Assembly: GCF_030013595.1 (NCBI RefSeq)
Contig: NZ_CP122768.1
Direction: 5' to 3' (one strand)
Origin: Escherichia coli
GTDB taxonomy: Bacteria > Pseudomonadota > Gammaproteobacteria > Enterobacterales > Enterobacteriaceae
DNA length: 64,000 nt
The notes under the pieces are model-generated. The model did no database searches. It was given only the letters and a program-made list of their open reading frames with translations, and was not told the origin of the DNA. The position numbers and the translations under genes are program-made. This document shows, piece by piece, positions 1,121 to 43,927 of this stretch (within the stretch, counting starts at the first letter, position 1; each line of letters starts with the position of its first letter).

Positions 1121-2287
1121 CTACTCAGTTTCCACCTCACAAGGAATTGTCCATTCAATTATAGTACCATTAACAGAGCTTTTGTAATCTCTAAGCACTT
1201 CGTTAATAATGCCAGTTTTCCCTTTGTAAATATAGCGCCCTTTTGATGAAAAAATCCCCATAAAACCATCACCTATTGAATCGATTACCGATTTGATATC
1301 ATTCAAGCCTTTACCTCGGTTCAGCTCCCCAGTCCTCGTTTCCTGAAGTAACGTGGAAGCCTTTATATAAGTAGAATCCTTTACATTTGCTAATGGAACT
1401 CTAAGTTTTTTGAAGATGTTCATTAGCACACTTACACCTTGTGTTTTAGGCAATGTTGAAGGTATTCCCACTCCTTTATCACATATTACCACTGTAAGAT
1501 TTTTGTCATGTATGCCAGCAAAGGTCCACCACTTAGCTGTTTCGTCATCTTCCGTATGCATTAAATCATCAACATAAGCATGCTCGACAGAATTAGACAT
1601 GGCCTCAGTAAAGCCACGGTATAATTTTTTTGATGATTTTCTTTCTAACTCTTTTTTTATTTCCACCATCATTTCTTTTGCTAAAAGAGGCTCAGAACAA
1701 GAACCTGATGTATATTTCCAAAAAGTCACATCATCATAACTTTCAGTTTCTCTTTTAGGTTTCCTTAATAGATCATAGAAACCGACTTGATTCAAAATGC
1801 TTTCAATTTTCTTGTCTTTCGGATGTGAAAACCCTATGGCATTTACTCCAAATTCACTTTTCTTAATAAGCACATCAACTTCAGCGAGAAAAGATAACAT
1901 AGCAGCTGCACTTATATATTTAGTTGAAGAAAAATCTATATAAACACGATTATTCTTCAACACGCAATCGCGTAAATTATTTAAAAATTTATTCATGATT
2001 TCAAAATCACGATCGTTGTAATAATTAATAGATATCGGAGCAGAAAAAACCACCCTTTTATTACTTGTTGTCAACTTTTTCTTCGAGACTCGTAGCTTAC
2101 GAGTGCGTTTGTAATATTCCAGTTTTCTCTTCGCATTTTCTACTCCTTCCCAATCCGTGCTTTTCAGAGAATTAAATATCCCCCTCTTCAGTTTCGAAAC
2201 TTGCCCGCGATAGTTTAGTTTTTGAACTTTTCTTCTTTTTTGCAGATTCATAAATATTTTCACATTTGATAACATCGCAGATATCAT
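1121..2287 (-). CDS. GHKL/HATPase_c-type ATPase (anti-sigma-factor-kinase-like) with basic N-terminus and a STAS-like middle region; first gene of cargo operon
   Basis: 388-aa ORF; Bergerat-fold motifs read from translation: N-box-like EAMSNSVEHAY, G1-like VVICDKGVGIP, G2-like NRGKGLNDIK, then GT motif; middle region RVYIDFSSTKYISAAAMLSFLAEVDVL resembles STAS; AT-rich. Confidence 0.65.
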   Translation of the reverse strand: MISAMLSNVKIFMNLQKRRKVQKLNYRGQVSKLKRGIFNSLKSTDWEGVENAKRKLEYYKRTRKLRVSKKKLTTSNKRVVFSAPISINYYNDRDFEIMNKFLNNLRDCVLKNNRVYIDFSSTKYISAAAMLSFLAEVDVLIKKSEFGVNAIGFSHPKDKKIESILNQVGFYDLLRKPKRETESYDDVTFWKYTSGSCSEPLLAKEMMVEIKKELERKSSKKLYRGFTEAMSNSVEHAYVDDLMHTEDDETAKWWTFAGIHDKNLTVVICDKGVGIPSTLPKTQGVSVLMNIFKKLRVPLANVKDSTYIKASTLLQETRTGELNRGKGLNDIKSVIDSIGDGFMGIFSSKGRYIYKGKTGIINEVLRDYKSSVNGTIIEWTIPCEVETE

Positions 2288-2657
2288 ATTTCACATGAAA
2301 AATTTTTTGTAGCCCCTCCATCAAAGAAAATCGCTGCCTTTATCAAAAACATTTCGAAATTGTCAGCAACTTAACGTCCCCCCACCCCAACAGTAAAATT
2401 GATCCCACTAGCTCAAGTGAAAGTCACCCCGTAACATCCTGTTGATACCCAGCGCCTGCGCTTTCGCTCTTACAGCATAACAAGAACGATCGATCCCCCA
2501 TATGCTTTCTACCGTCAACGTGCCTACACACTGACCTGAGTGCCATGATTTCCCTCATGCATAACCTGTTCACCGAATATCTCTCGAAAACCATTCTGGT
2601 AAAACGCCAGTACGCGCTGCATAGCTTCGCTCCTCCGACACTCGCGACAGATTATGT

Positions 2658-2999
2658 TCAGACGCCTGTCATAGCGGCGTATTTCTCCGTCTGGTAATGA
2701 ATAAACCAGGTCCGGGTCGCTCTTTTTTTCACTGCTGCTTTCGACATCTTTTTGCGGGCCTTTATCCAGTCCTTACGTGCCTGTTCAGACGGAAATAACC
2801 CGTAGCCGGAGTTGTATAAATCGCCACTGGCAACCAGCTCTCTGGCAAGAACACTCATCAGATACCTTGTCGCACCTGTCTTAGCTTCCAGTTGTCGTAA
2901 CGTCTCGCGCCCACTCTGGTGCACGAGCTCAACAACCTTCCCCTTAATTTTTTCCCGCTCTTCTTGTGTAAATACTTTTGCCATAAGCGCCTCCGGCAA
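2658..2999 (-). CDS. phage hypothetical protein
   Basis: 113-aa ORF directly downstream of and co-directional with the replication-module genes; no recognisable motif. Confidence 0.45.
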   Translation of the reverse strand: MPEALMAKVFTQEEREKIKGKVVELVHQSGRETLRQLEAKTGATRYLMSVLARELVASGDLYNSGYGLFPSEQARKDWIKARKKMSKAAVKKRATRTWFIHYQTEKYAAMTGV

Positions 3000-3770
3000 T
3001 CACTTTTCCGATGCAACATGGCGGGAAGAATCAGTAATCTGTCGTACAATATCCCTGTGCTTGTTCAACTCACGCAGCGCGGCGCAGACACGCTCCCACT
3101 TCTGGGCATGACTTTTCGCCCGGCGCAGTTCGCGGTTTGCCATATGCAGCGATGGTAAAATCAGGCCATCAGCTCGTGTTTCAGTGAACGATGGCAGCGA
3201 CTGCACAATGTCCGCCACAGTTTCTGTTTTAATATCTTCCTGTGTTGCAGCTTCCTGTACTGGTAACGCAACACTTGCTGGCTGAGGAAAGGCTTTACCA
3301 TCAGTTTCCGCTACCAATGCAGCTTTCGGCTCTGCTGGTAAATTATCGCCCGGTATGCAGTAGCGAAATTTACCGTTCTGGTTTACGCGTGCCAGCCGCC
3401 CCGTTGCGGTTACTACCGCCAGCGTGGAAGCAACCTTGCGAGTGCTGACACCGAACTTACCCGCCAGTTCCTCACACGTTTTAGCTCCCTCCTGACCGAT
3501 AAACTCAATCATCATGTCAGCGGTAACTTTTCGTTCGACCTCCCTGGTTAGCACATCCTGTACTTCAGATTGTGCTGGCTGCTCTTCGGCTACCCCTGAT
3601 TCACCTTCGCCAGCCACACGCCAGGTGTATACGCTTTTATCAACGAAGCCAGCCTTTTTCAGTTCCCACAGCTCGTTCAGTACTTCTTCACGACTGATAT
3701 CAAGTCGCGCAGCCAGCTCTACCGACGTGGCTTTTCCCATCGCTTTCAGTGCGTCAAAAACGGTCTCCAT
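3000..3770 (-). CDS. phage DNA-binding protein, winged-helix-like (YdaW-position gene, appears full length)
   Basis: ORF 3000..3821; likely start at internal Met [30 protein letters not shown] (HTH-like); follows the ydaV-like gene. Confidence 0.5.
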
Positions 3771-3792
3771 TAAAATTTCCTCCCGGTAAAAA

Positions 3793-4539
3793 TTACTTCT
3801 CAATACCTGGCTGACCAACATTCGGGCGCCAGCTCTCCCAGTTAAAATTCACCCAGCGCCCGCCGTTCATGGTCATGCGGTCCATAATCCGCTCGCCGAG
3901 CAGCGTTTTCATGGCCTCATAGTTCAGGTTTGTCAGCATTCCCACGCTGCGCATCGACGCTGTCCGGCGATCAACAATCTGGTGCAGTACCACCTGCTCG
4001 TTTTTCGTCTCGCGCTGAATGCCAATTTCATCAAGAACCAGCAGATCCACTTCGCACAGTTCCCGCAAAAATTTTTCGCCTGATTGCCCGTCGTCATAGC
4101 TGGCGTGTAGAGCACTCATAACATCAGCCACGGTAACCACAATCACTGTCTGGCCATCTTTCAGCAGGCGATTCCCGATAGCCGCCGCTAAGTGGTTTTT
4201 CCCGGTACCAGGTTTTCCGCTGAATGCGAAATTTGTGCATCCGGTCATCAGTTCATCGGCGATGGATTTCGCCTGGCTCAGCGCGTATCGCTGGTCGTCA
4301 TTCTGCACCTGGTAATTCGCAAACGAGCACTTGCGGTGCAACGGCTGGATGCCGGAGCGATTCAGAATTTTTTCCACCCGCAACTGACGATTCTGGCGGT
4401 TGATCTCCTCGCAACGCTTCTGGCCTTCTGCAAGTTGCCACTCGCGCCACTCGTCCACTGTTCGGTATGGCGCGGTTACATGCTGCGGAGCCAGCTTACG
4501 GATGCGTTCAAGAACACCGCCTGTCGCAATATTTTTCAT
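3793..4539 (-). CDS. ydaV: Rac prophage DnaC/IstB-like replication ATPase (helicase loader)
   Basis: 248 aa; Walker [16 protein letters not shown] and DnaC-like layout; matches remembered YdaV length. Confidence 0.85.
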
Positions 4540-4545
4540 GCTTCG

Positions 4546-5430
4546 TTACCCCCTGAAGCCTGGTGGGATCGCACTGTCCGGAAACGAGACGGTGTTAACC
4601 TGTCGAAGCAACGTCTCAGGCCGAACGCCTTTCGGCGCGAACAAGCCCTGGTATTCATGGGCAATGCTGTGTCTAATCACCTGCTCAGGGGTAAAACCCT
4701 GCTGGCGGAATTTTTCCAGCTCCCGTATCGCCCCGTTAGCGCCCTGCTCCGTTCGAATCGGTTTTCGCAATGCCTGCCTGAATTGAACCCACTCATGCCA
4801 GAGTGTTTCCGGCAACCACTCAGGCAGAGCAACTGACAACGGGTCGAATTTTTTAGTCGCTCGTTTTTGGTGAGGGAGATTTAGAGGGAGATCAGTATTT
4901 ATATCTTCCTCTTCCTCTTCCTCTTCCTCTTCCTCTTCCTCTGGTAACGCTTTTTGATCCGTTTGTGTAACGCTGGCAGCGTTACCTTTTCGTTTCAGTT
5001 CACGTATTTTTGTTACTCGCTCGTTTGTAACCGCCCGTTTTTTTGAGCTTTTTCCGTTATGACGTTCAAAGTTAGGTAGCGAAAGCCCACCGTCATTTTC
5101 GACCAGCCATCCAACCTGAATTAGCGCATCAGCAAAACCAGCCATAAAAGTGATGCGATCTATTGCACTTTTTGTAACGCTGCGAGCGTTACACTCTACG
5201 TTACCGTCTATCATTTGTTGATCCGCCCATACCCAGAAGCGAATGACTTTCCCTAATGCGGCATCTGGATCAATATTCAGAATCTCAGCAAGCCTGAATA
5301 TTTCCGGCTTATCCGGCGTAATAACCTCGAGCTTTATCCAGTTTGAAGCCATATTGTTTTCACCTTGTAACGCTGTGAGCGTTACATTTAACTGATACCG
5401 AACAAAACAGTCCGGCACGATTAATTTCAA
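4546..5430 (-). CDS. ydaU: Rac prophage replication-initiation-like protein with internal poly-Glu tract
   Basis: 294-aa ORF in YdaU position; contains 12 consecutive Glu encoded by a hexanucleotide repeat. Confidence 0.8.
   Translation of the reverse strand: MKLIVPDCFVRYQLNVTLTALQGENNMASNWIKLEVITPDKPEIFRLAEILNIDPDAALGKVIRFWVWADQQMIDGNVECNARSVTKSAIDRITFMAGFADALIQVGWLVENDGGLSLPNFERHNGKSSKKRAVTNERVTKIRELKRKGNAASVTQTDQKALPEEEEEEEEEEEEDINTDLPLNLPHQKRATKKFDPLSVALPEWLPETLWHEWVQFRQALRKPIRTEQGANGAIRELEKFRQQGFTPEQVIRHSIAHEYQGLFAPKGVRPETLLRQVNTVSFPDSAIPPGFRG
4905..4940. repeat. perfect hexanucleotide tandem repeat (CTTCCT)x6 on + strand, encoding poly-Glu in ydaU-like gene
   Basis: Read directly: cttcct repeated six times. 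Confidence 0.9.
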
Positions 5431-5853
5431 TCAATGCACTACAACAGAATCGTCGGACGCTCCACCACCGCTGAAATGTGCTTTCCGGTAAACGGCCTGG
5501 ACTGCATCATCATGCGCATCAATTGCCGTACTCAACGCTTCCTGCGCCGCCAGTAATGCACGGCGTTCCAGGGTATCGAAGATGCAGAGTCGATGACGCA
5601 GCTCCCGCGGAAGGATTGCCAGAATTGCTGGGATCAGCTTCTGAATTTTTTCCCTTTGCGCTTCCGTTTCACCTTTTAACCAACGATGATAGATATTCTG
5701 CTGATTGTTCCAGTCCCTGCCTGGTACCAAGGGCAATTCGCCGTCCCCCTGGCGCAGATATTCTTCAGTAATTGCATTGGCTACCCATGCCTGCCCTTTT
5801 TCAGCGGCCAGGGCTAACAGCACTGATTCAATGTGCTCATGCCTGATTTTCAT
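5431..5853 (-). CDS. ydaT: Rac prophage protein YdaT-like
   Basis: 140-aa ORF in conserved position and of matching length to K-12 YdaT. Confidence 0.8.
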   Translation of the reverse strand: MKIRHEHIESVLLALAAEKGQAWVANAITEEYLRQGDGELPLVPGRDWNNQQNIYHRWLKGETEAQREKIQKLIPAILAILPRELRHRLCIFDTLERRALLAAQEALSTAIDAHDDAVQAVYRKAHFSGGGASDDSVVVH

Positions 5854-6139
5854 GAATCAACTCCTGTGCATTTTGTGTGTTAGCTTTACATCCAACAGGT
5901 AAACCATCGGTCGGATTCGGGTAGATATCAGGCCGAAGTTCATGAGGTGTAACCTCGAAATTCGTAGCCTCCGCGATACGCAATACCTTTTCGGGGCTTA
6001 ACTGACTACGGCCAGTAGCTACGAGGCTAATCATTGATTGCGAACAACCAGCGAGTGCAGCCAAACAAGACTGTCGTACACGATTTTTTTTCAAATATTC
6101 ATCTAATGTCATAAGGGTCACCTTAGTAATGCCTGTCAA
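5837..6139 (-). CDS. ydaS: Cro-like HTH regulator YdaS-like
   Basis: 100-aa ORF divergent from racR; HTH segment QSCLAALAGCSQSMISLVATG; start may be the internal Met (MTLDEYL). Confidence 0.8.
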   Translation of the reverse strand: MTGITKVTLMTLDEYLKKNRVRQSCLAALAGCSQSMISLVATGRSQLSPEKVLRIAEATNFEVTPHELRPDIYPNPTDGLPVGCKANTQNAQELIHENQA

Positions 6140-6216
6140 AATATTAACTATATTAATTTAAATGATCAATACCTATATCAGTTTGAGATTATGAGTTGTG
6201 TTCATAAGATGGTGGT

Positions 6217-6681
6217 ATGAGAAGAAAACGCGAAGAAATCGCATCGCCAGAAGCTACGCAGCGTCTGCGCGCAGTCTGGGATGCCAAAAAAAGAGAGCTC
6301 AAACTGACTCAGGAGCTTGCTGCTGAGCTAATGGGCTTTGAGACTCAATCCACAGTTAGCCACTATCTCAACGGAAAGGCTCCACTAAACACTGATGCAG
6401 CATTAAAATTCGCTGTATTACTAAGAGTTAAGCCTGAAGAGTTGAGGCCTGATTTAGCTGATCTGATGAATTACGTCCGTTCCTCAGGAACTTATGACGA
6501 AAGTTTCGAAGGAGAAGGTTGGCGGATGGTTAACAAGCAACAAGCTGATTTACTGGATCTTTTTGAAATCCTACCCGAATCAGAAAAAGCAAAACTAATC
6601 GAAAGGCTTAAAGGTCAGAATGAACTCTACAAAGAAGCGTTTGAAAAGATGCTGGCAGCTCAGAAACGCATGAAGAAATAG
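6217..6681 (+). CDS. racR: Rac prophage repressor (CI-like HTH)
   Basis: 154-aa ORF with HTH (TQELAAELMGFETQSTVSHYLNG), divergent from ydaS. Confidence 0.8.
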   Translation: MRRKREEIASPEATQRLRAVWDAKKRELKLTQELAAELMGFETQSTVSHYLNGKAPLNTDAALKFAVLLRVKPEELRPDLADLMNYVRSSGTYDESFEGEGWRMVNKQQADLLDLFEILPESEKAKLIERLKGQNELYKEAFEKMLAAQKRMKK

Positions 6682-6701
6682 CTCCCGTAACCTCGTAACT
6701 A

Positions 6702-6727
6702 AACCGCCATTTTTGGCGGTTTTTTTG
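6702..6727 (+). terminator. rho-independent terminator after racR
   Basis: Hairpin ccgcca-tttt-tggcgg followed by a T-run. Confidence 0.65.
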
Positions 6728-6916
6728 TCCCCTCTGCACCCTCACCTTTCTTTTTTATCAAAAAAAACACTAAAAATTTCATTACGATAGTACATTTTTA
6801 TCAATAAAATGCATATTTGTGTTGATCACTTATATGAATATAACTAATATTATTGCAGAAGCAGCACGGCGCTGTAGGTTTTAGTTCCGCCACCCGGCGT
6901 TAAAGGGAGAGATAAA

Positions 6917-7051
6917 ATGGTGCATTACGAAGTAGTTCAGTATTTGATGGATTGTTACGGCATCACTTACAGCCAGGCTGTACAGGCTCTACGCAGCAAC
7001 GACTGGGATCTCTGGCAGGCAGAAGCCTCTATCCGCAACAACAAGATGTGA
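6917..7051 (+). CDS. ydaG: Rac prophage small protein YdaG
   Basis: 44-aa ORF MVHYEVVQYLMDCYGITYSQAVQALRSNDWDLWQAEASIRNNKM, near-identical to remembered K-12 YdaG; GGGAGAG Shine-Dalgarno. Confidence 0.7.
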   Translation: MVHYEVVQYLMDCYGITYSQAVQALRSNDWDLWQAEASIRNNKM

Positions 7052-34059: not shown

Positions 34060-35091
34060 ATGATCGCTGAACTGTTTACAAATAATGCGCTTAATCTGGT
34101 CATTATTTTCGGTAGCTGCGCAGCATTGATTCTGATGAGCTTTTGGTTTCGCCGCGGAAATCGTAAAAGAAAAGGTTTTTTATTCCATGCGGTGCAATTT
34201 TTAATCTACACCATAATTATCAGTGCTGTTGGTAGCATCATTAATTATGTTATAGAAAACTATAAACTCAAATTTATCACCCCAGGCGTTATCGATTTTA
34301 TCTGTACGTCCCTGATTGCGGTTATTCTGACGATTAAGCTATTTCTGCTGATTAATCAGTTTGAAAAACAGCAGATTAAAAAAGGTCGCGATATCACCAG
34401 TGCGCGGATTATGTCGCGTATCATCAAAATCACCATTATTGTGGTGCTTGTTCTGCTTTATGGCGAACATTTCGGCATGAGCCTTTCTGGCTTGTTGACC
34501 TTTGGTGGTATTGGTGGTCTGGCTGTCGGTATGGCCGGTAAAGATATTCTGAGTAACTTCTTTTCCGGGATTATGCTCTATTTCGACCGTCCTTTTAGTA
34601 TTGGCGACTGGATCCGTTCACCGGACAGAAATATCGAAGGTACAGTAGCGGAAATTGGCTGGCGAATTACCAAGATTACGACTTTTGATAATCGTCCGTT
34701 GTACGTACCGAACTCGCTGTTTTCGTCAATCAGCGTAGAAAACCCAGGACGAATGACCAACCGGCGCATTACCACGACCATTGGTTTACGTTATGAGGAT
34801 GCGGCAAAAGTGGGCGTTATTGTCGAAGCCGTACGTGAGATGCTGAAAAACCACCCGGCCATTGACCAGCGACAAACCTTACTGGTTTATTTCAACCAGT
34901 TTGCTGACTCCTCATTGAATATTATGGTTTATTGCTTTACCAAAACCACGGTATGGGCTGAATGGCTTGCTGCACAGCAAGACGTTTATTTGAAGATTAT
35001 CGATATTGTACAGTCACACGGCGCGGACTTTGCCTTCCCCAGCCAGACGCTGTATATGGATAACATTACACCGCCGGACCAGGGTCGCTAA
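34060..35091 (+). CDS. ynaI: MscS-family mechanosensitive channel YnaI
   Basis: 343-aa ORF with N-terminal TM helices and MscS-like C-terminal region. Confidence 0.9.
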
Positions 35092-35141
35092 ATCAGACAT
35101 CACTGGCGTTATCCACAAGGGTAACGCCAGTTCCCATCACA

Positions 35142-36755
35142 TCAATGCTTCACAATATACATAGTCCGACTGTACGCCACATCTTCCGGGTTATTAATGG
35201 GATAACCTTTCAGCCACGGCTTGATTAATCGTCCATTGGTATATTGATAAATTGGTGCAATCGGTGCTTGCTCCATGAGGATTTTTTCTGCCGTATTGTA
35301 ATCGGCATTACGCGCTTTAACGGTATTTTCCGTTGATGCCTGGGCCAGTACTTTGTCGTATGCCGGATTGTTAAAGCGTGAAATATTCCCTGAATGCGTT
35401 GACGTTAACAACGTAAGGAAAGTGGAGGGTTCATTATAATCCCCTACCCATGAGGCGCGGATAACATCAAAATTGCCGGTGTTACGGCTATCGATATAGG
35501 TTTTCCATTCCTGATTCTGCAATTTAACATCTACGCCAAGGTTCTTTTTCCACATCGATGCTACAGCAATCGCAATTTTTTGATGGTTTTCTGAAGTGTT
35601 ATACAAAAGCGTCAGCTTCAGCGGTTTTTGCGGACCATAACCAGCTGCGCTCAACAAAGTTTTTGCCTGCGCATTCAGTTCTTCCTGACTCATTTGTTCA
35701 AACGGCGAAGGCTCCGGCGTAAAACCGGCAGTAACATCTGGTGTAAAATGCCACGCTGGCTTTTCCCCCGTCCCCAACACTTTTTCGGTCATCAGGCGGC
35801 GATCTATCGTCATACTTAATGCCAGGCGAACACGCTGATCGGCCGTCGGCCCTTTTTGCGTGTTAAACGCATAATAATAGGTCCCGAGCTGCGGCGGCGT
35901 ATAAACCTGCCCCGGAATATCCTTCAACAGCTTCTGATACATATTTTTCGGGAAGGATTCGGTGATATCAATATCCCCCGCGAGATAACGCTTAGTGGCT
36001 GCGGATTCCTGATTAATTGGCAGGAAGGTCACCTTTTGCAGTACCGTTTTGGCGTTATCCCAATAATGGGTATTCGGCACCACGACCAGTTTTTCATTGA
36101 CTATGCGCTCTTTAAGAACATAAGCGCCATTGCCGATCAGATTTCCGGGTTTCGTCCACTCTTTACTGCTTTCTACGTTGGCTTTTTGCACTGGGAAGAA
36201 GGCAAAGTTAGCGGTTAAATTCACAAACCACGGCAACGGTTTATCAAGCTGGATTTTCAAAGTATGGGCATCAACTGCGGTGACGCCAAGCTGGTCAGGC
36301 GTGGCTTTACCATCAATAATCGCCTGTGCGTTGTTAATTCCCGCCAGCGCGGCAAACCATGCAAATGGCGACAATGTTTTTGGGTCCACCAGACGTTGCC
36401 AGCTGTAGACAAAATCTTGCGCCGTTACCGGTGTGCCATCCGCCCATTTTGCGTTATCGCGCAGGGTAAAAGTCCAAATACGGTTGTCATTACTTTTCCA
36501 CTGAGTCGCAACGCCGGGGACAATCTCCCCTTTCTCGTTCTGATTCACCAGTCCTTCAAACAGATCGCGAATGACCTGAATCTCCGGCAGGCCCACGGCT
36601 TTAGCGGGATCCAGAGACGCTGGCTCATCTTTAATGTGGCGCACCAGCTCCTGCTTCTCTGCCAGTACTGTGCCGCTCGGAACTTCAGCAGCATACGAAA
36701 GAGAAATGCTGCTGACCAACAGCGCACAACACGTGACTGAAACAGAGTGCTTCAT
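35142..36755 (-). CDS. mppA: periplasmic murein tripeptide-binding protein MppA
   Basis: 537 aa from MKHSVSVTCCALLVSSISLSYA (signal peptide); OppA-like. Confidence 0.9.
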   Translation of the reverse strand: MKHSVSVTCCALLVSSISLSYAAEVPSGTVLAEKQELVRHIKDEPASLDPAKAVGLPEIQVIRDLFEGLVNQNEKGEIVPGVATQWKSNDNRIWTFTLRDNAKWADGTPVTAQDFVYSWQRLVDPKTLSPFAWFAALAGINNAQAIIDGKATPDQLGVTAVDAHTLKIQLDKPLPWFVNLTANFAFFPVQKANVESSKEWTKPGNLIGNGAYVLKERIVNEKLVVVPNTHYWDNAKTVLQKVTFLPINQESAATKRYLAGDIDITESFPKNMYQKLLKDIPGQVYTPPQLGTYYYAFNTQKGPTADQRVRLALSMTIDRRLMTEKVLGTGEKPAWHFTPDVTAGFTPEPSPFEQMSQEELNAQAKTLLSAAGYGPQKPLKLTLLYNTSENHQKIAIAVASMWKKNLGVDVKLQNQEWKTYIDSRNTGNFDVIRASWVGDYNEPSTFLTLLTSTHSGNISRFNNPAYDKVLAQASTENTVKARNADYNTAEKILMEQAPIAPIYQYTNGRLIKPWLKGYPINNPEDVAYSRTMYIVKH

Positions 36756-36812
36756 AAGTTTCCCTCTAACCGACATTAAAATTGATGCGTAATTATTTGT
36801 TTCGCCTTAAAG

Positions 36813-36842
36813 AAATGCAAACAACTTCCATCAAAAAAGTGA
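36813..36842. repeat. 30-bp element AAATGCAAACAACTTCCATCAAAAAAGTGA, copy 1 (upstream of mppA)
   Basis: Exact 30-nt identity with 39924..39953; contains dyad ATG-N11-CAT. Confidence 0.9.
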
Positions 36843-37091
36843 CAAAGGAAGCATCAAATGTTTTAAGTATCAATATATCAAATCAGATTTAGTGTAAATA
36901 ATAGTCTCCAAAATGCGGTAAAGCACATAGAACTCCGAACACTACGTTCGGGCTTCGCACGTTCAAACCCGTTTTCGGTATCATAATCAGCATCTGTCGC
37001 CATTGTACGAAGAATAAAAAATGACCAAAACGTTGAAAGGAACTGAGAATACGTTAAGAGAAGAATTAAATTAATGTATCAGCAAGTAGTG

Positions 37092-37991
37092 CTAAACAGC
37101 ACCTTTATACTTCAGCCTATCTATAAATAATGAGAATGCCGAGCCAGCATGTCGACGGTGTGGATAGTACAGGTGATAACCGGGTAAATCTGGTGTGAAT
37201 TTATCCAAAACACGTATCAGTTTTTTTTCTTTAATAGCCCGCTCAACCTGATCATAAGGTAGATACGCCAATCCATGCCCATCAATTGCAGCATCAATGA
37301 TCAGGTCTATCGTATTCAGTAAAAGCTGACCTTCCATGCGAACACGAACTTCACGTCCACCGCGTATTAATCTCCAGCGATTTGCTGTACCCGATGTGGG
37401 AAGATACAAATTAATTGCCTGATGATCTATTAATTGTGACACTGACGTTGGAGCACTTCGACGAGAAAAATAATCCGGTGAGCCAACAATAGCCATTGGT
37501 ATATCTGGCCCGATTCGAATGGCGATCATATCTTTATCCATCTCCCCACCCAGACGGACGCCTGCATCAAAACGTTCAGAAACGACATCGGTCAAACCAT
37601 AATCAATGGTAAGCTGGATATCAATTTCAGGATGCGATTTCAGGAATGTGCGCATAGCTGGTAACAATATCGTTTTTGCTGCATGTTCTACAGTAGTAAT
37701 ACGTATTGTCCCGGATGGGCGGTTCTGCAGATCGCTCAGGGATGTCAGGGCAGAATCTATGTCATGCAACATAGGGCCAAGAACAGACAAAAGATGCTCG
37801 CCCGCTTCAGTGGGTACAACGCTGCGCGTGGTTCGCGTCAGAAGCCGCAATCCCAATCGTTCTTCTATACGGCGCACTATCTGGCTTAAAGCTGACTGCG
37901 CCATGCTCAGGCGGGCTGCTGCGCGAGTGAAGCTACGCTCCTCTGCAACGACGACAAACGCCATCAGATCAGCGATTTCTTCACGCTTCAT
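37092..37991 (-). CDS. pgrR: LysR-family regulator PgrR (YcjZ)
   Basis: 299-aa ORF with LysR HTH in conserved position between mppA and ycjY. Confidence 0.85.
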   Translation of the reverse strand: MKREEIADLMAFVVVAEERSFTRAAARLSMAQSALSQIVRRIEERLGLRLLTRTTRSVVPTEAGEHLLSVLGPMLHDIDSALTSLSDLQNRPSGTIRITTVEHAAKTILLPAMRTFLKSHPEIDIQLTIDYGLTDVVSERFDAGVRLGGEMDKDMIAIRIGPDIPMAIVGSPDYFSRRSAPTSVSQLIDHQAINLYLPTSGTANRWRLIRGGREVRVRMEGQLLLNTIDLIIDAAIDGHGLAYLPYDQVERAIKEKKLIRVLDKFTPDLPGYHLYYPHRRHAGSAFSLFIDRLKYKGAV

Positions 37992-38128
37992 TCAGTATCT
38001 CCATACAATCTATTAATCATTTAAATGATAGGTCTAATCATAATTTAGGGTCTAATCAACTTAATGATCAATATCTATAGTGATATCACCAACCGTCAAA
38101 ACGAACCGACAACTCCATGAGGAACGGA

Positions 38129-39049
38129 ATGATGAATAATAAAGTCAGCTTCACTAACAGCAATAATCCAACCATCTCTTTGTCTGCAGTGATCTATTTC
38201 CCTCCAAAATTTGATGAAACCCGTCAGTATCCGGCAATTGTGGTATCTCACCCAGGTGGGGGCGTTAAAGAGCAAACGGCTGGAACCTATGCCGAAAAAC
38301 TGGCGGAAAAGGGATTTGTCACTATTGCTTATGACGCATCTTATCAAGGTGAAAGCGGCGGCGAGCCGCGTCAGTTAGAAAACCCATACATTCGTACTGA
38401 AGACGTCAGTGCCGTGATTGATTACCTGACAACGCTTTCTTATGTCGACAATACCCGAATTGGTGCGATGGGAATTTGTGCCGGTGCAGGATATACAGCC
38501 AATGCTGCAATTCAGGATCGCCGCATCAAGGCCATCGGTACTGTTAGTGCGGTCAATATTGGTTCGATGTTCCGTAATGGTTGGGAAAACAATGTGAAAT
38601 CTATTGATGCCCTACCATACGTTGACGCGGGTTCAAACGCCCGAACCAGCGATATTAGTAGCGGAGAATACGCCACTATGCCACTGGCACCAATGAAGGA
38701 GTCCGATGCGCCGAACGAAGAACTGCGTCAGGCCTGGGAGTATTACCACACCCCTCGCGCGCAGTATCCAACAGCACCGGGTTACGCTACTTTGCGCAGC
38801 CTTAACCAGATTATTACCTATGATGCTTACCATATGGCGGAAGTGTACCTGACTCAGCCGATACAGATTGTGGCGGGCAGCCAGGCAGGGAGCAAATGGA
38901 TGAGTGACGACCTGTACGATCGAGCATCAAGCCAGGATAAACGCTATCACATTGTTGAAGGCGCAAACCATATGGATCTTTATGACGGCAAAGTCTATGT
39001 GGCTGAAGCAATTTCAGTATTAGCTCCGTTCTTTGAGGAAACTCTGTAA
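38129..39049 (+). CDS. ycjY: alpha/beta hydrolase YcjY
   Basis: About 306 aa; dienelactone-hydrolase-like. Confidence 0.85.
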   Translation: MMNNKVSFTNSNNPTISLSAVIYFPPKFDETRQYPAIVVSHPGGGVKEQTAGTYAEKLAEKGFVTIAYDASYQGESGGEPRQLENPYIRTEDVSAVIDYLTTLSYVDNTRIGAMGICAGAGYTANAAIQDRRIKAIGTVSAVNIGSMFRNGWENNVKSIDALPYVDAGSNARTSDISSGEYATMPLAPMKESDAPNEELRQAWEYYHTPRAQYPTAPGYATLRSLNQIITYDAYHMAEVYLTQPIQIVAGSQAGSKWMSDDLYDRASSQDKRYHIVEGANHMDLYDGKVYVAEAISVLAPFFEETL

Positions 39050-39119
39050 TGAAACATATTCAAATCCGCAATAGTGATATGGCCTGGCATATTACTGCCA
39101 ATAATCTGGGAAAAGTTTC

Positions 39120-39758
39120 ATGAAAAATGTACTGATTCTTGGTGCTGGCGGTCAGATAGCCCGCCATGTGATTAATCAACTGGCAGATAAACAAACCATT
39201 AAACAAACTTTATTTGCCCGTCAGCCAGCAAAAATCCACAAACCCTATCCCACTAATAGCAAGATTATTATGGGGGATGTACTGAATCATGCAGCACTGA
39301 AGCAGGCCATGCAGGGACAGGATGTTGTGTATGCCAACCTTACGGGGGAAGATTTAGATATTCAGGCAAATTCAGTGATCGCTGCGATGAAAGCCGGTGA
39401 TGTTAAACGTCTGATCTTTGTTCTTTCCCTCGGTATTTATGATGAAGTTCCAGGAAAATTTGGCGAATGGAATAATGCAGTTATTGGTGAGCCCCTAAAA
39501 CCATTCCGCAGGGCTGCGGATGCAATTGAGGCTTCTGGACTGGAATATACAATTCTTCGCCCTGCCTGGCTGACTGATGAAGATATTATTGATTATGAGC
39601 TTACCTCACGCAATGAACCATTCAAAGGTACGATCGTATCACGTAAGAGTGTCGCTGCATTAATTACAGATATCATCGATAAACCTGAGAAACACATTGG
39701 TGAGAATATAGGCATCAATCAACCCGGGACTGATGGTGATAAGCCATTCTTCATGTAA
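39120..39758 (+). CDS. NAD(P)-binding Rossmann-fold protein (ymjC-position gene)
   Basis: 212-aa ORF with N-terminal GAGGQIA dinucleotide-binding motif. Confidence 0.7.
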   Translation: MKNVLILGAGGQIARHVINQLADKQTIKQTLFARQPAKIHKPYPTNSKIIMGDVLNHAALKQAMQGQDVVYANLTGEDLDIQANSVIAAMKAGDVKRLIFVLSLGIYDEVPGKFGEWNNAVIGEPLKPFRRAADAIEASGLEYTILRPAWLTDEDIIDYELTSRNEPFKGTIVSRKSVAALITDIIDKPEKHIGENIGINQPGTDGDKPFFM

Positions 39759-39923
39759 ATCAATTATATAGCTACCATCGTACTGTACTATGTGCAGTAC
39801 GATTTATTAAACTTATTAAGGTGAACTGATCAATTAGATGCGATTAACATGTGTAGAACCAGTAAGAATAAAATACGCCATGTATATAACATTACGACAA
39901 TTCTAATATCTGCACATCAATGA

Positions 39924-39953
39924 AAATGCAAACAACTTCCATCAAAAAAGTGA
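39924..39953. repeat. 30-bp element AAATGCAAACAACTTCCATCAAAAAAGTGA, copy 2 (upstream of mpaA)
   Basis: Exact 30-nt identity with 36813..36842. Confidence 0.9.
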
Positions 39954-40048
39954 TACAAGATCGATAACATAGCGTTGAAGAAAAGGATTTGATAATCCGC
40001 AAAATTTGCACAACACTGCCTGTAATACTTCCTGAACCAGAGACGATC

Positions 40049-40751
40049 ATGACCGTAACTCGCCCACGCGCCGAACGCGGCGCATTTCCGCCCGGAACAG
40101 AACATTACGGACGTTCATTATTGGGCGCGCCGTTAATCTGGTTTCCGGCCCCTGCAGCCAGTCACGAAAGTGGTTTGATTCTGGCTGGCACTCACGGTGA
40201 TGAAAACTCTTCGATCGTCACGCTCTCCTGTGCTCTGCGGACGTTGACACCTTCTTTGCGCCGTCATCATGTGGTGCTGTGTGTGAATCCTGACGGCTGC
40301 CAGTTGGGGTTAAGGGCCAATGCTAATGGTGTGGATTTAAACAGAAACTTTCCGGCGGCAAACTGGAAGGAAGGTGAAACCGTTTATCGCTGGAACAGCG
40401 CCGCTGAAGAACGTGATGTCGTATTGCTGACAGGTGACAAACCTGGCTCCGAACCTGAAACCCAGGCGCTGTGCCAGCTTATACACCGCATTCAACCCGC
40501 CTGGGTGGTCTCATTCCACGATCCGCTGGCCTGTATTGAAGATCCCAGACACAGCGAATTAGGTGAATGGCTGGCCCAGGCGTTTGAATTGCCTCTGGTA
40601 ACCAGCGTCGGTTATGAAACGCCTGGCTCTTTCGGCAGTTGGTGTGCGGATCTCAACCTGCATTGCATCACCGCAGAGTTTCCACCCATCTCCTCCGACG
40701 AAGCCAGCGAAAAATATCTCTTTGCGATGGCAAACTTGCTGCGCTGGCATC

Positions 40752-40777
<26 letters not shown>
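40049..40777 (+). CDS. mpaA: murein peptide amidase A
   Basis: 242 aa from MTVTRPRAERGAFPPG... Confidence 0.9.
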
Positions 40778-41727
<950 letters not shown>

Positions 41728-41835
41728 TGTTGTCGCGGTGGTCTGCGGATTAAGCGCAAATAGCGTTTGCTGTGTTATTGACAGTTAGCATAAACTAGGT
41801 GTGACGTTAACTATATGTAAACAGGAAAGATAATC

Positions 41836-42342
41836 ATGTCACAAACCGTTCATTTCCAGGGCAACCCGGTTACAGTCGCCAATTCCATCCCGCAGGCGGG
41901 TAGCAAAGCGCAGACTTTTACTCTCGTGGCAAAAGATCTGTCTGACGTCACCCTCGGTCAGTTTGCGGGTAAACGCAAAGTGCTGAACATTTTCCCGAGT
42001 ATTGATACCGGTGTTTGCGCCGCATCAGTACGTAAGTTTAACCAACTGGCAACCGAGATCGACAACACCGTTGTGCTGTGTATCTCTGCCGATCTGCCGT
42101 TCGCCCAGTCTCGTTTCTGCGGCGCAGAAGGTCTGAACAACGTTATCACCCTCTCCACTTTCCGTAACGCTGAATTTCTGCAAGCCTACGGTGTGGCAAT
42201 TGCTGATGGCCCACTGAAAGGTCTGGCAGCGCGTGCCGTTGTGGTTATTGATGAAAATGACAATGTGATTTTCAGCCAGCTGGTGGATGAAATCACCACC
42301 GAGCCGGATTACGAAGCAGCTCTGGCTGTACTGAAAGCATAA
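41836..42342 (+). CDS. tpx: thiol peroxidase Tpx
   Basis: 168 aa; peroxiredoxin motifs. Confidence 0.95.
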
Positions 42343-42385
42343 GTTAATATGCCTGATGGTGTTGCACCATCAGGCATATTCGCGC

Positions 42386-43927
42386 TTACTCTTCGTTCTT
42401 CTTCTGACTCAGACCGTATTCCCGCAACTTATTTGCAATCGCGGTATGCGAAACGCCCAGGCGTTTTGCCAGTTTGCGCGTGCTGGGATAATTGCGATAA
42501 AGCTGGGTTAATACCGAGCGTTCAAAACGGCTGGTGATTTCGTCCAGCGAACCTTCCATCGCATCTTCGCCCACGGCTACCGTTGCGGCGTCATAATCCG
42601 GTAACAAAATATCCTGTGGACGCAGCTCATAACCGTCCAGTTGTGTCAGTGCGCGATAAATAGCGTTCTTTAACTGCCGCACATTTCCCGGCCACGCATA
42701 ACGCGTAAGTACAGTATTCAGGTCAGCGGCCAGTTTCGGACGCGGCACGCCCTGCTCGTCGGCAAAGCGGGCGACGAACAGCTCGGTTAACGGCATGATG
42801 TCCTGCGGACAGTCACGTAGCGGCGGCAGATTGAGCGTCAACACGTTCAGACGATAATAGAGATCTTCACGGAACACGCCTTTTTGCACCAGTTCGACAA
42901 GATTCTTCTGCGTAGCGCAAATCACCCGCACATCGACATGCACCTCATGGTCTTCGCCAACCCGACGGAAAGTGCCATCATTAAGGAAACGCAGTAATTT
43001 CGCCTGCATCCGTGGTGACATCTCACCTATTTCATCCAGCAGTACCGAACCACCGTTCGCCTGCTCAAAGAACCCTTTCTTCCCTTCCGGGGCATGACCA
43101 AACAATTCACTCTCGACCGCATCTTCCGGGATAGAAGCACAGTTCAGCGCCAGATAGGGTTTGCCCGCGCGTGGGCTTGCCTGATGACAGGCATACGCAA
43201 AGAGATCTTTTCCGGTGCCGGTATCACCGGTTATCAGCAGCGGCGCGCTTAGCATCGCCAGTTTCTGCGCCTGTTCGACAACATGCTTCATTTTCGGGCT
43301 GACGGCGACAATTTGACTAAAGGCGCTGACGTCCTGGGCGGCGACATTTTGCAACTGACGGCCCATACGAATCGTTGATCGCAGCATCACCACCGCACCG
43401 GTCAGGACGTGTTGATCATTTTCATCCTGAAGATAAACAGGCGTAATCTCCATCAGGAAATTCTGTCCATTAATAACGACATGCTCGTTATGGGAATCCT
43501 GCGGTTCGCTTTCCAGCCAGCGTAAAAAATTAAAGCCGTTAATCAATTGTGCGGCGGTATGGTTGCGCAGGCGATCCAATTTTTGCCCAAAAAGCTGACA
43601 GCTCGCCGGGTTCGCCATATCCACTTTGCTTTTCATATCGACAGAGAGCACAGGTTCAGGCAACGCCTCCAGTAACGCGCTCAACGCCAGATGCTCACGT
43701 TCGGAAGGCATCCACGGGACAGTACGGACATCGGTAACACCTGCAATACGGCGTATTTCGGCCATCAGACTGCTGAAACTCTCAAACTCCAGTTCAGCAA
43801 AATTGAGGTAGATTCGCCCAATGGGGTCAATCTCAATACCGCGTAAATCAATGCCTCTTAGCACGAGTAGATCGAGTAATTCGCGGGTCAGACCGAGTCG
43901 GTCTTCACAAAAGACTTCCAGACGCAT
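42386..43927 (-). CDS. tyrR: aromatic amino-acid regulator TyrR (sigma-54-activator-family AAA+)
   Basis: 513 aa from MRLEVFCEDRLGLTRELLDLL...; GDTGTGK and GAFTGA-like motifs. Confidence 0.95.
   Translation of the reverse strand: MRLEVFCEDRLGLTRELLDLLVLRGIDLRGIEIDPIGRIYLNFAELEFESFSSLMAEIRRIAGVTDVRTVPWMPSEREHLALSALLEALPEPVLSVDMKSKVDMANPASCQLFGQKLDRLRNHTAAQLINGFNFLRWLESEPQDSHNEHVVINGQNFLMEITPVYLQDENDQHVLTGAVVMLRSTIRMGRQLQNVAAQDVSAFSQIVAVSPKMKHVVEQAQKLAMLSAPLLITGDTGTGKDLFAYACHQASPRAGKPYLALNCASIPEDAVESELFGHAPEGKKGFFEQANGGSVLLDEIGEMSPRMQAKLLRFLNDGTFRRVGEDHEVHVDVRVICATQKNLVELVQKGVFREDLYYRLNVLTLNLPPLRDCPQDIMPLTELFVARFADEQGVPRPKLAADLNTVLTRYAWPGNVRQLKNAIYRALTQLDGYELRPQDILLPDYDAATVAVGEDAMEGSLDEITSRFERSVLTQLYRNYPSTRKLAKRLGVSHTAIANKLREYGLSQKKNEE

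Follow-up and report, generated by a model that had tools for sequence, protein, structure and literature searches.

Direct repeats of host sequence that bracket acquired DNA are familiar from target-site duplications and from the attL and attR sites of integrated elements; in both cases the copies share one orientation, the empty site carries the sequence once and the acquired DNA can be deleted precisely. Target-site duplications of transposons typically measure 2-14 bp, and the staggered attacks of Cas1-Cas2 and of casposases, made about 30 bp apart and followed by gap filling, duplicate about 30 bp on each side. Two other described arrangements are close to the locus considered here, namely divergent sigma-70 promoters, in which one short segment serves two opposed promoters, and the operators of LysR-type regulators, with their T-N11-A pattern. 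The present study concerns a stretch of 64,000 nucleotides of Escherichia coli (contig NZ_CP122768.1 of assembly GCF_030013595.1; hereafter, the window), where a 30-bp sequence, AAATGCAAACAACTTCCATCAAAAAAGTGA, lies upstream of mppA and again upstream of mpaA, on either side of pgrR, the gene of a LysR-type regulator. The first-pass annotation of this DNA, made from the letters alone, suggested that the repeat may be an operator shared by both genes and bound by PgrR, with a duplicated promoter module as the fallback. The analysis described below points, with a probability of about 0.8, to a scar and not an operator: the repeats would be the duplicated core of an old divergent mppA/mpaA promoter, flanking an inserted islet that contains pgrR, ycjY and a gene of the short-chain dehydrogenase/reductase (SDR) type. 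The fallback of the first-pass annotation was close to the truth.

The repeat and its empty sites

The 30-mer has two exact matches in the window, at 36813-36842 (copy 1) and 39924-39953 (copy 2), both on the plus strand. No third copy was found in the window at up to three mismatches, and none of 100 dinucleotide-preserving shuffles contained any match, which confirms the non-random repeat in a single orientation noticed earlier. Ungapped similarity between the copies extends weakly to 37 nt (34/37) and is lost beyond. The left flank of copy 1 and the right flank of copy 2 are the left and right flanks, respectively, of the single copy present in empty-site genomes, and the inner flanks of both copies are islet DNA, which has no similarity to the native spacer. 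The names given earlier to mppA, pgrR and mpaA, as well as the location of the element in the control regions of mppA and mpaA, were upheld. The gap of 95 bp between the element and the mpaA ATG is also correct, but the distance of 40-70 bp proposed for mppA is not: copy 1 lies 58-87 bp upstream of the RefSeq start, and the shorter distance fits only an in-frame ATG located seven codons further upstream. The statement that the copies bracket pgrR holds but is incomplete, since the whole block of 3081 bp, comprising a queH fragment, pgrR, ycjY and the SDR gene, is bracketed by them.

A survey of 5426 complete E. coli genomes revealed 168-174 with an empty site and a single copy of the element; in strain 201609, for example, mppA and mpaA are divergent and 182 bp apart, with one copy between them. 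A cross-species scan with MpaA, using one genome per species, returned 80 loci; at 76 of them, which represent more than 15 genera, mppA and mpaA are divergent neighbours with neither pgrR nor ycjY in between, and the spacer with its single element copy is about 180 bp long across these 76 species. They include Escherichia albertii, E. whittamii and other Escherichia lineages, and span Citrobacter, Enterobacter, Leclercia, Lelliottia, Kluyvera, Klebsiella, Kosakonia, Pluralibacter, Trabulsiella and others. Outside E. coli, the two-copy arrangement was met among the 80 loci only in Escherichia sp. E1V33, and the conservation of both copies across Enterobacteriaceae, which the first-pass annotation had proposed to check, was not found. 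The locus thus shows what is looked for in a target duplication, namely copies of host sequence at both junctions, empty sites in relatives and foreign DNA in between.

Predicted and mapped promoters overlapping the element

Conservation of the single-copy spacer and promoter predictions suggest that the element is shared by two opposed promoters. On the mppA side, we infer that the hexamer TTGCAT within copy 1 is the -35 box, paired with an AATAAT -10 hexamer in the native spacer (Table 1); the sigma-70 scan itself picked an overlapping site, TTTGCA (36821-36816)-18-AATAAT, with 9 of 12 matches, and TTGCAT/AATAAT is the only sigma-70-like site that the scan found near copy 1. In the alignment of the 76 single-copy spacers, GTAATTATTTGT, located to the left of the element and covering the predicted mppA -10 hexamer, is invariant. 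Within the element, AAATGCAAA (positions 1-9) is 80-100% conserved, CTT (positions 13-15) 88-96% and TGA (positions 28-30) 99%, the same being true of TGA(TA), and positions 16-19, which include the site where the two copies may carry GG or AT, are conserved at about 40-55%. In E. coli, the mppA-side 45-mer running from the -10 through the -35 hexamer is exact in 5135 of the 5147 matching genomes.

On the mpaA side, a transcription start was mapped experimentally at position 1388705 of K-12 MG1655, with 20 reads (Kim et al. 2012, PMC3415461, supplementary file 2), and the string listed upstream of this start is AACTAATAAAATGCAAACAACTTCCGGCAAAAAAGTGATACAAGATCGATG (PMC3415461). The register of these 51-mers, with the last base as +1, was verified with the ycjG entry, whose 58-nt leader fits exactly. 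The extended -10 TGaTACAAG, to which copy 2 contributes the first bases, ends 7 nt before the equivalent start in the window, as an extended -10 should. The repeat, consequently, starts with two bases beyond the predicted mppA -35 hexamer and ends immediately before the mpaA -10 hexamer.

Further down the mpaA leader, at 39980-40014, GAAAaGGATTTGATAATCC and TTTGCACAACACTG are 90-100% conserved in the 76 species; the spacing of these blocks fits TTGATa-17-AACACT, and the promoter scan gave no call there. The blocks could represent a second, proximal mpaA promoter or a regulator site within the 83-nt leader. Two other candidate functions were rejected. An Rfam search of 35000-42500 for an RNA element, conducted with permissive E-values, returned two sub-threshold chance matches, neither of them near the repeats, and a CRP site over the right end of the element was dismissed on manual inspection, which found the second half-site missing.

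Foreign origin of the islet

Homologues of PgrR that are 87-89% identical are present in Klebsiella, Raoultella, Kluyvera, Salmonella and other bacteria. In these bacteria pgrR is part of a 5.84-kb module, where it diverges from ycjY and is accompanied by a second hydrolase, an NmrA-type SDR, an adh_short gene and an old yellow enzyme (OYE)-type reductase; the module has sharp ends and occurs in at least four unrelated contexts, i.e., on the Raoultella chromosome, on the K. aerogenes chromosome, in a conjugative element and beside an ars operon. Besides Klebsiella and Raoultella, Salmonella and Kluyvera were also seen to carry it in unrelated surroundings. The three K. aerogenes copies of the module are mutually 99.7-99.9% identical. 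The E. coli islet is 79% identical in nucleotide sequence to the Klebsiella/Raoultella module over the segment that begins at the pgrR stop codon and stops just short of the adh_short start codon, and its ends are unrelated to the module: 249 nt with a QueH fragment annotation by the Prokaryotic Genome Annotation Pipeline (PGAP) at one end and about 92 AT-rich nt at the other. Kluyvera cryocrescens has a similarly truncated four-gene form, 79% identical, with different ends and located beside a Phage_integrase fragment. Judging from these comparisons, the islet is a truncated fragment of a foreign chromosome. A donor with queH adjoining pgrR was not found in the genomes searched. E. coli presumably uses QueG and not QueH, in which case the queH fragment would be a remnant of the donor context. 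The idea that the 92-nt tail is a remnant of adh_short was rejected, with no protein or nucleotide similarity seen beyond the ribosome-binding site. The 5.84-kb module itself (about 1133-6983 of the loci that carry it) has a hairpin at each end and no recombinase gene, and one of its copies is flanked by an imperfect inverted repeat, AATCTGACAGTCTGC / GCTGTCTGTCAGATT.

The islet is single-copy per genome. No terminal inverted repeats were detected at its ends (score 8 versus a shuffle mean of 8.9), and no open reading frame (ORF) for a transposase was found in or beside it; a transposon or a miniature inverted-repeat transposable element was rejected on the grounds that the region lacks terminal inverted repeats and is single-copy. 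A search of the islet and its immediate surroundings for an integrase, an excisionase or a remnant of either was likewise negative, and no tRNA gene is present there.

Divergence between the copies and excision of the islet

The perfect identity of the two copies is rare. The nine islet-bearing E. coli genomes sampled all have CCATC (the AT form) in copy 1; copy 2 reads CCGGC (the GG form) in all sampled islet genomes except O145, the K-12-like, O157:H7 and ATCC 25922-like backgrounds included, and CCATC in both copies was seen, among the genomes sampled, only in the window and in O145. In the survey, 3689 of the 5426 genomes have an exact match to the GG form with the mpaA flank, and 858 more match it with one mismatch, together about 84%; the AT form with the same flank occurs in at least 60 genomes (about 77 by estimate), 14 of which are single-copy. 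Perfectly identical copies are estimated for about 1% of E. coli genomes, the K-12 repeat matching at 28/30, and sequence resembling the window around copy 2 was found in 46 genomes. Two sampled members of the 858-genome class have a G>A change in the TTGCAT of copy 2, which fits relaxed constraint on this now-redundant half of the element. The AT dinucleotide occupies element positions 18-19, i.e., 36830-36831 in copy 1 and 39941-39942 in copy 2. The ATG-N11-CAT dyad reported by the first-pass annotation is indeed there, but it exists only through these two bases.

Outgroup species are all GG-like, and Escherichia sp. E1V33 has GG in both copies. The left end of the E1V33 islet is as diverged from E. 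coli as the E1V33 flanks are; a Campbell-type reintegration of an excised circle in this strain was considered and rejected, since the windowed divergence better fits an islet of long residence, the interior of which has been replaced by E. coli sequence.

Empty sites with a single AT copy were found in 14 genomes. One of them, CP131_Sichuan, has no islet, and it matches a K-12-like AT/GG genome at 100% identity over the adjoining 313 nt (left) and 297 nt (right); recombination of copy 1 with copy 2 would be expected to give this deletion product if the crossover fell within the last 11 bp. About 154 empty-site genomes, many of them ST648-like, have the GG form within ordinary E. coli flanks, and they may be deletions with a crossover further left or may preserve the old allele. 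The repeats do recombine, precisely deleting the islet.

Proposed history of the locus

In the ancestral state, mppA and mpaA would have been divergently transcribed out of a common spacer of about 180 bp with the 30-bp element in the middle, the left end of the element providing the mppA -35 hexamer TTGCAT and the right end providing the TG of the mpaA extended -10. In an ancestor of Escherichia, a truncated pgrR/hydrolase/SDR module with the queH remnant would then have been inserted, the 30 bp being duplicated on either side, so that mppA would be served by copy 1 with the native -10 hexamer, and mpaA by copy 2 with the native TACAAG and start. The duplicated piece extends from the mppA -35 hexamer to the mpaA extended -10, and both promoters would, for this reason, have stayed complete; a one-point insertion anywhere in this interval would have split the parts of one promoter, and the preservation of the promoters was probably the reason that the insertion was tolerated. 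The duplication would have been GG/GG at the time of insertion, with an early GG>AT change in copy 1 of E. coli. Copy 2 would have mostly stayed GG, its redundant TTGCAT decaying in some strains, and in a few lineages, including that of the window, copy 2 appears to have been homogenised to copy 1, most simply by short-patch gene conversion, to give the 30/30 match. We infer both the direction GG>AT and gene conversion as the homogenising step. Once formed, the repeats would act as substrates for the precise deletion of the islet. Candidate mechanisms for the duplication are a staggered break with fill-in and a replicative template switch returning 30 nt behind its departure point, rather than the action of a recognisable transposase or integrase.

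Several observations weigh against this history. A target duplication of 30 bp exceeds that of any standard transposase, and neither a recombinase, nor a terminal inverted repeat, nor a tRNA accompanies it in or beside the islet. The evidence for the direction GG>AT comes from the outgroups and from E1V33, a strain in which the islet interior has been overwritten by E. coli DNA. The A at +13 past the mpaA-side element, found in the window and in O145, cannot derive from copy 1, which means that the history of the AT/AT haplotype comprises more than one simple conversion. As for the promoters, no experimental proximal start site of mppA is given in Kim et al. 2012 (PMC3415461) or in the further supplements searched, and the only start assigned to mppA by Kim et al. 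falls inside pgrR (window position 37244, minus strand; 489-nt leader, 6 reads); the distal mpaA start may not be the main one, given the conserved blocks in the leader.

Alternative explanations

A shared operator, where PgrR would bind ATG-N11-CAT in both copies and co-regulate murein tripeptide uptake and hydrolysis, is suggested by the presence of the dyad in both copies of the window, by the location of pgrR between them and by the finding that all the islet-bearing E. coli genomes sampled have, in copy 1, the AT that creates the dyad. The element, however, is kept as a single copy in 76 species with no pgrR at this locus; its ancestral form reads ATG-N11-CGG, and so does the copy beside mpaA in about 84% of E. 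coli genomes, K-12-like ones included; a 3-bp dyad carries very little information; and the A-run and the right half of the element vary between strains. The published list of PgrR targets from genomic SELEX (systematic evolution of ligands by exponential enrichment) comprises the ycjY/ycjZ spacer and ten unrelated loci, with mppA and mpaA not among them (PMC5934670). The operator-like motifs of the pgrR-ycjY spacer (Table 1) mark the likely candidate region for PgrR binding. They have no copy with 0-1 mismatch elsewhere in the mppA-mpaA region, and the few chance matches to the 10-mer motif with two mismatches that occur nearby are neither in nor next to the 30-mer. Since the element predates pgrR at this place, the dyad exists only in the derived AT variant, and both the SELEX targets and the conserved motifs are elsewhere, the operator proposed by the first-pass annotation is not supported, and it is considered highly improbable. 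Scarcely any credence is given to the related idea that GG>AT was an adaptive rewiring, in which a LysR-type site beside the mppA -35 hexamer put mppA under the islet-borne PgrR; if it were true, the AT/AT lineages would have copied this site into the mpaA distal promoter spacer and placed the transporter and the amidase under one regulator. There is also only a very slim chance that the repeats are attL and attR of a decayed integrative element, which entered site-specifically at a 30-bp core and later lost its integrase. Direct repeats with the length of an att core around foreign DNA, the single copy in naive genomes, the occurrence of a pgrR module inside a conjugative element and its neighbourhood to a Phage_integrase fragment in Kluyvera would all agree with such an origin. 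Yet the islet and its vicinity are free of genes or remnants of an integrase or excisionase, the islet consists of a truncated metabolic module with a queH fragment and looks like a random piece of chromosome, the module boundaries in other genomes differ and do not have the 30-bp sequence, and the excision products are some GG and some AT, which fits homologous crossover at varied points in the repeat.

Two other alternatives accept the insertion and differ in how the copies came to diverge at two bases. The two products of a duplication should be identical at first, and the original state may have been AT/AT, with the islet inserted into an AT spacer and the GG of copy 2 acquired later, by recombination, from islet-free GG alleles; single-copy AT alleles do exist, and AT in copy 2 is linked to the right-flank haplotype gataacat, which is also found in islet-free genomes. 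Such a sequence of events is unlikely in view of the outgroups, all GG-like, of E1V33 with GG in both copies, and of the distribution of the forms, with AT/GG in K-12-like, O157:H7 and ATCC 25922-like backgrounds against AT/AT in about 1% of genomes; moreover, the single AT copy of CP131_Sichuan lies within flanks identical to those of a K-12-like AT/GG genome and so is a recent deletion product. Alternatively, copy 1 might have been brought in by the donor DNA through homology-facilitated illegitimate recombination: the islet would have been situated to the right of the donor's own element, one end recombining in mppA and the other joining illegitimately to the left of the recipient's element. 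This would account for the two-base difference from the outset, and microhomologies can be pointed out at the junctions (ACAgGA versus ACAaGA, and AATGAAAATG versus AAAGAAATG), but they are short and, like the flank similarities at the junctions in general, within chance; the searches turned up no donor of this kind, the islet is lacking in other Escherichia species, and the left flank in E. coli is not unusually diverged. A contribution of the donor to copy 1 is, thus, judged very unlikely, and the duplication of the native promoter core, as GG/GG, is preferred.

Features of the locus, islet variants and other insertions

The features of the locus are listed in Table 1. Besides the start assigned to mppA, the data of Kim et al. 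include a start antisense to pgrR, at window position 37450 on the plus strand, which was assigned to ycjY (10 reads).

Table 1. Coordinates of the genes, the repeat copies and the regulatory features of the mppA-mpaA region in the window.
Feature	Position	Strand	Remarks
mppA coding sequence	35142..36755	-	RefSeq start, 537 aa
Predicted mppA -10 hexamer AATAAT	36792..36797	-	Not part of the repeat; in the native spacer, 17 bp away from TTGCAT
Copy 1 of the 30-bp repeat	36813..36842	+	Left islet junction; native mppA-side spacer on the left, islet DNA on the right
Predicted mppA -35 hexamer TTGCAT	36815..36820	-	Inside copy 1
Inserted islet, 3081 bp	36843..39923		queH fragment, pgrR, ycjY, SDR gene and AT-rich tail of about 92 nt
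queH pseudogene fragment	~36902-36994	-	PGAP annotation in several RefSeq genomes
pgrR	37092..37991	-	
Operator-like motifs in the pgrR-ycjY spacer	38016..38068		ATCATTTAAATGAT and two copies of GGTCTAATCA; conserved with the Klebsiella/Raoultella modules; candidate PgrR binding region
ycjY	38129..39049	+	
SDR/NmrA-like gene	39120..39758	+	Intact in the window; corresponds to the ymjC/ymjD pseudogene of K-12
Copy 2 of the 30-bp repeat	39924..39953	+	Right islet junction; islet DNA on the left, native mpaA-side spacer on the right
mpaA distal promoter, extended -10 TGaTACAAG	39951..39959	+	TGA is the last three bases of copy 2; TACAAG immediately outside
Equivalent of the mapped mpaA start	39966	+	13 nt past copy 2, 83 nt before the ATG
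mpaA coding sequence	40049..40777	+	NCBIfam equivalog NF007897, 478 bits

The size of the islet ranges from 3.1 to 4.0 kb across E. coli, and a second hydrolase is present in some genomes. Three forms can be distinguished: a long form with both hydrolases and the SDR gene, exemplified by O157:H7; the form of the window, where the second hydrolase is deleted; and the form of K-12-like genomes, where the SDR gene is also truncated by a 665-bp deletion, the right end of which abuts copy 2. The second alpha/beta hydrolase (310 aa), encoded between ycjY and the SDR gene, is kept in many E. coli (O157:H7, O145 and others) at a position that matches the Klebsiella module, and it is absent from the window and from K-12 through a deletion of about 880 bp; its gene is frameshifted in O157:H7 Balcarce_24.2 and has an internal stop in O145 RM12522. 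The 665-bp deletion of the K-12 type corresponds to about 39259-39923 of the window and ends exactly at the left edge of copy 2; the SDR gene is reduced by this deletion, at which the microhomology AAT(A/G)A is found, to the ymjC/ymjD pseudogene, and Escherichia sp. E1V33 has the same deletion junction. Within E. coli, polymorphism in the islet is highest in the queH stretch, where haplotypes differ by about 4%. The genes of the pathway itself can also be pseudogenes: mpaA has an internal stop in the FDA Seattle 1946 (ATCC 25922-like) genome, and mppA is frameshifted in O145 RM12522-C8.

A different islet, of 3.1-3.4 kb, is located in the same mppA-mpaA spacer of Salmonella enterica subsp. arizonae and diarizonae. 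It includes ORFs of 270, 275 and 191 aa (at about 3449-5677 of the arizonae locus and about 3374-5602 of the diarizonae locus) that, judged by sequence, resemble CdtA, CdtB and CdtC of the cytolethal distending toxin. Flanking of this islet by the 30-bp element was considered and rejected: other sequence has taken the place of the mppA-proximal half of the spacer, the element included, and no duplication flanks the islet. The mppA-mpaA spacer seems to be a recurrent site of insertion. In E. coli MFDS1019527, a prophage lies inside mppA with a tyrosine integrase beside the junction (2621-4066 of the locus); only the first 66 nt of mppA are left beside the spacer, and the element is single-copy and of the GG form. 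Matches to the spacer or the element were also found on plasmids, at 6-12 places in the E. coli collection.

Implications and comparison with known systems

The gene order mppA-pgrR-ycjY-ymjCD-mpaA of K-12 can be understood as the result of an insertion into an older, widely conserved divergent mppA/mpaA unit, and the insertion of the islet would make pgrR a late arrival in the control of peptidoglycan recycling in E. coli, outside the ancestral circuit. The locus would, hence, offer a natural example of foreign DNA placed between back-to-back promoters, both of which were spared because their shared core was duplicated. The distal promoter of mpaA overlaps copy 2, and the repeats constitute a deletion hotspot that removes pgrR and ycjY, with the islet missing from about 3% of E. 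coli genomes.

Repeats flanking an insertion are of a kind already known, and the finding is a modest evolutionary one that introduces no new mechanism. The locus resembles target-site duplications and attL/attR pairs in the orientation and host origin of the copies, in the single-copy empty site and in the precise deletion of the acquired DNA, but differs from them in having no transposase, integrase, terminal inverted repeat or tRNA target and in a repeat that, at 30 bp, is longer than transposase duplications; unlike self-contained mobile elements, it has a fragment of a truncated metabolic module as its cargo. The geometry of Cas1-Cas2 and casposase integration is comparable as an analogy only, the insert here being about 3-4 kb long and the locus having no CRISPR or casposon context. 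With LysR-type operators the AT variant shares the ATG-N11-CAT dyad and a LysR-type gene nearby, but this dyad is a derived two-base variant and is unlike the motifs of the pgrR-ycjY spacer. As in other divergent sigma-70 promoters, one short segment would have served two opposed promoters, with starts about 70 bp apart in the ancestral arrangement, of which the mpaA start alone has been mapped experimentally; the present locus differs in that its shared segment exists in duplicate and its promoters lie 3.1 kb apart.

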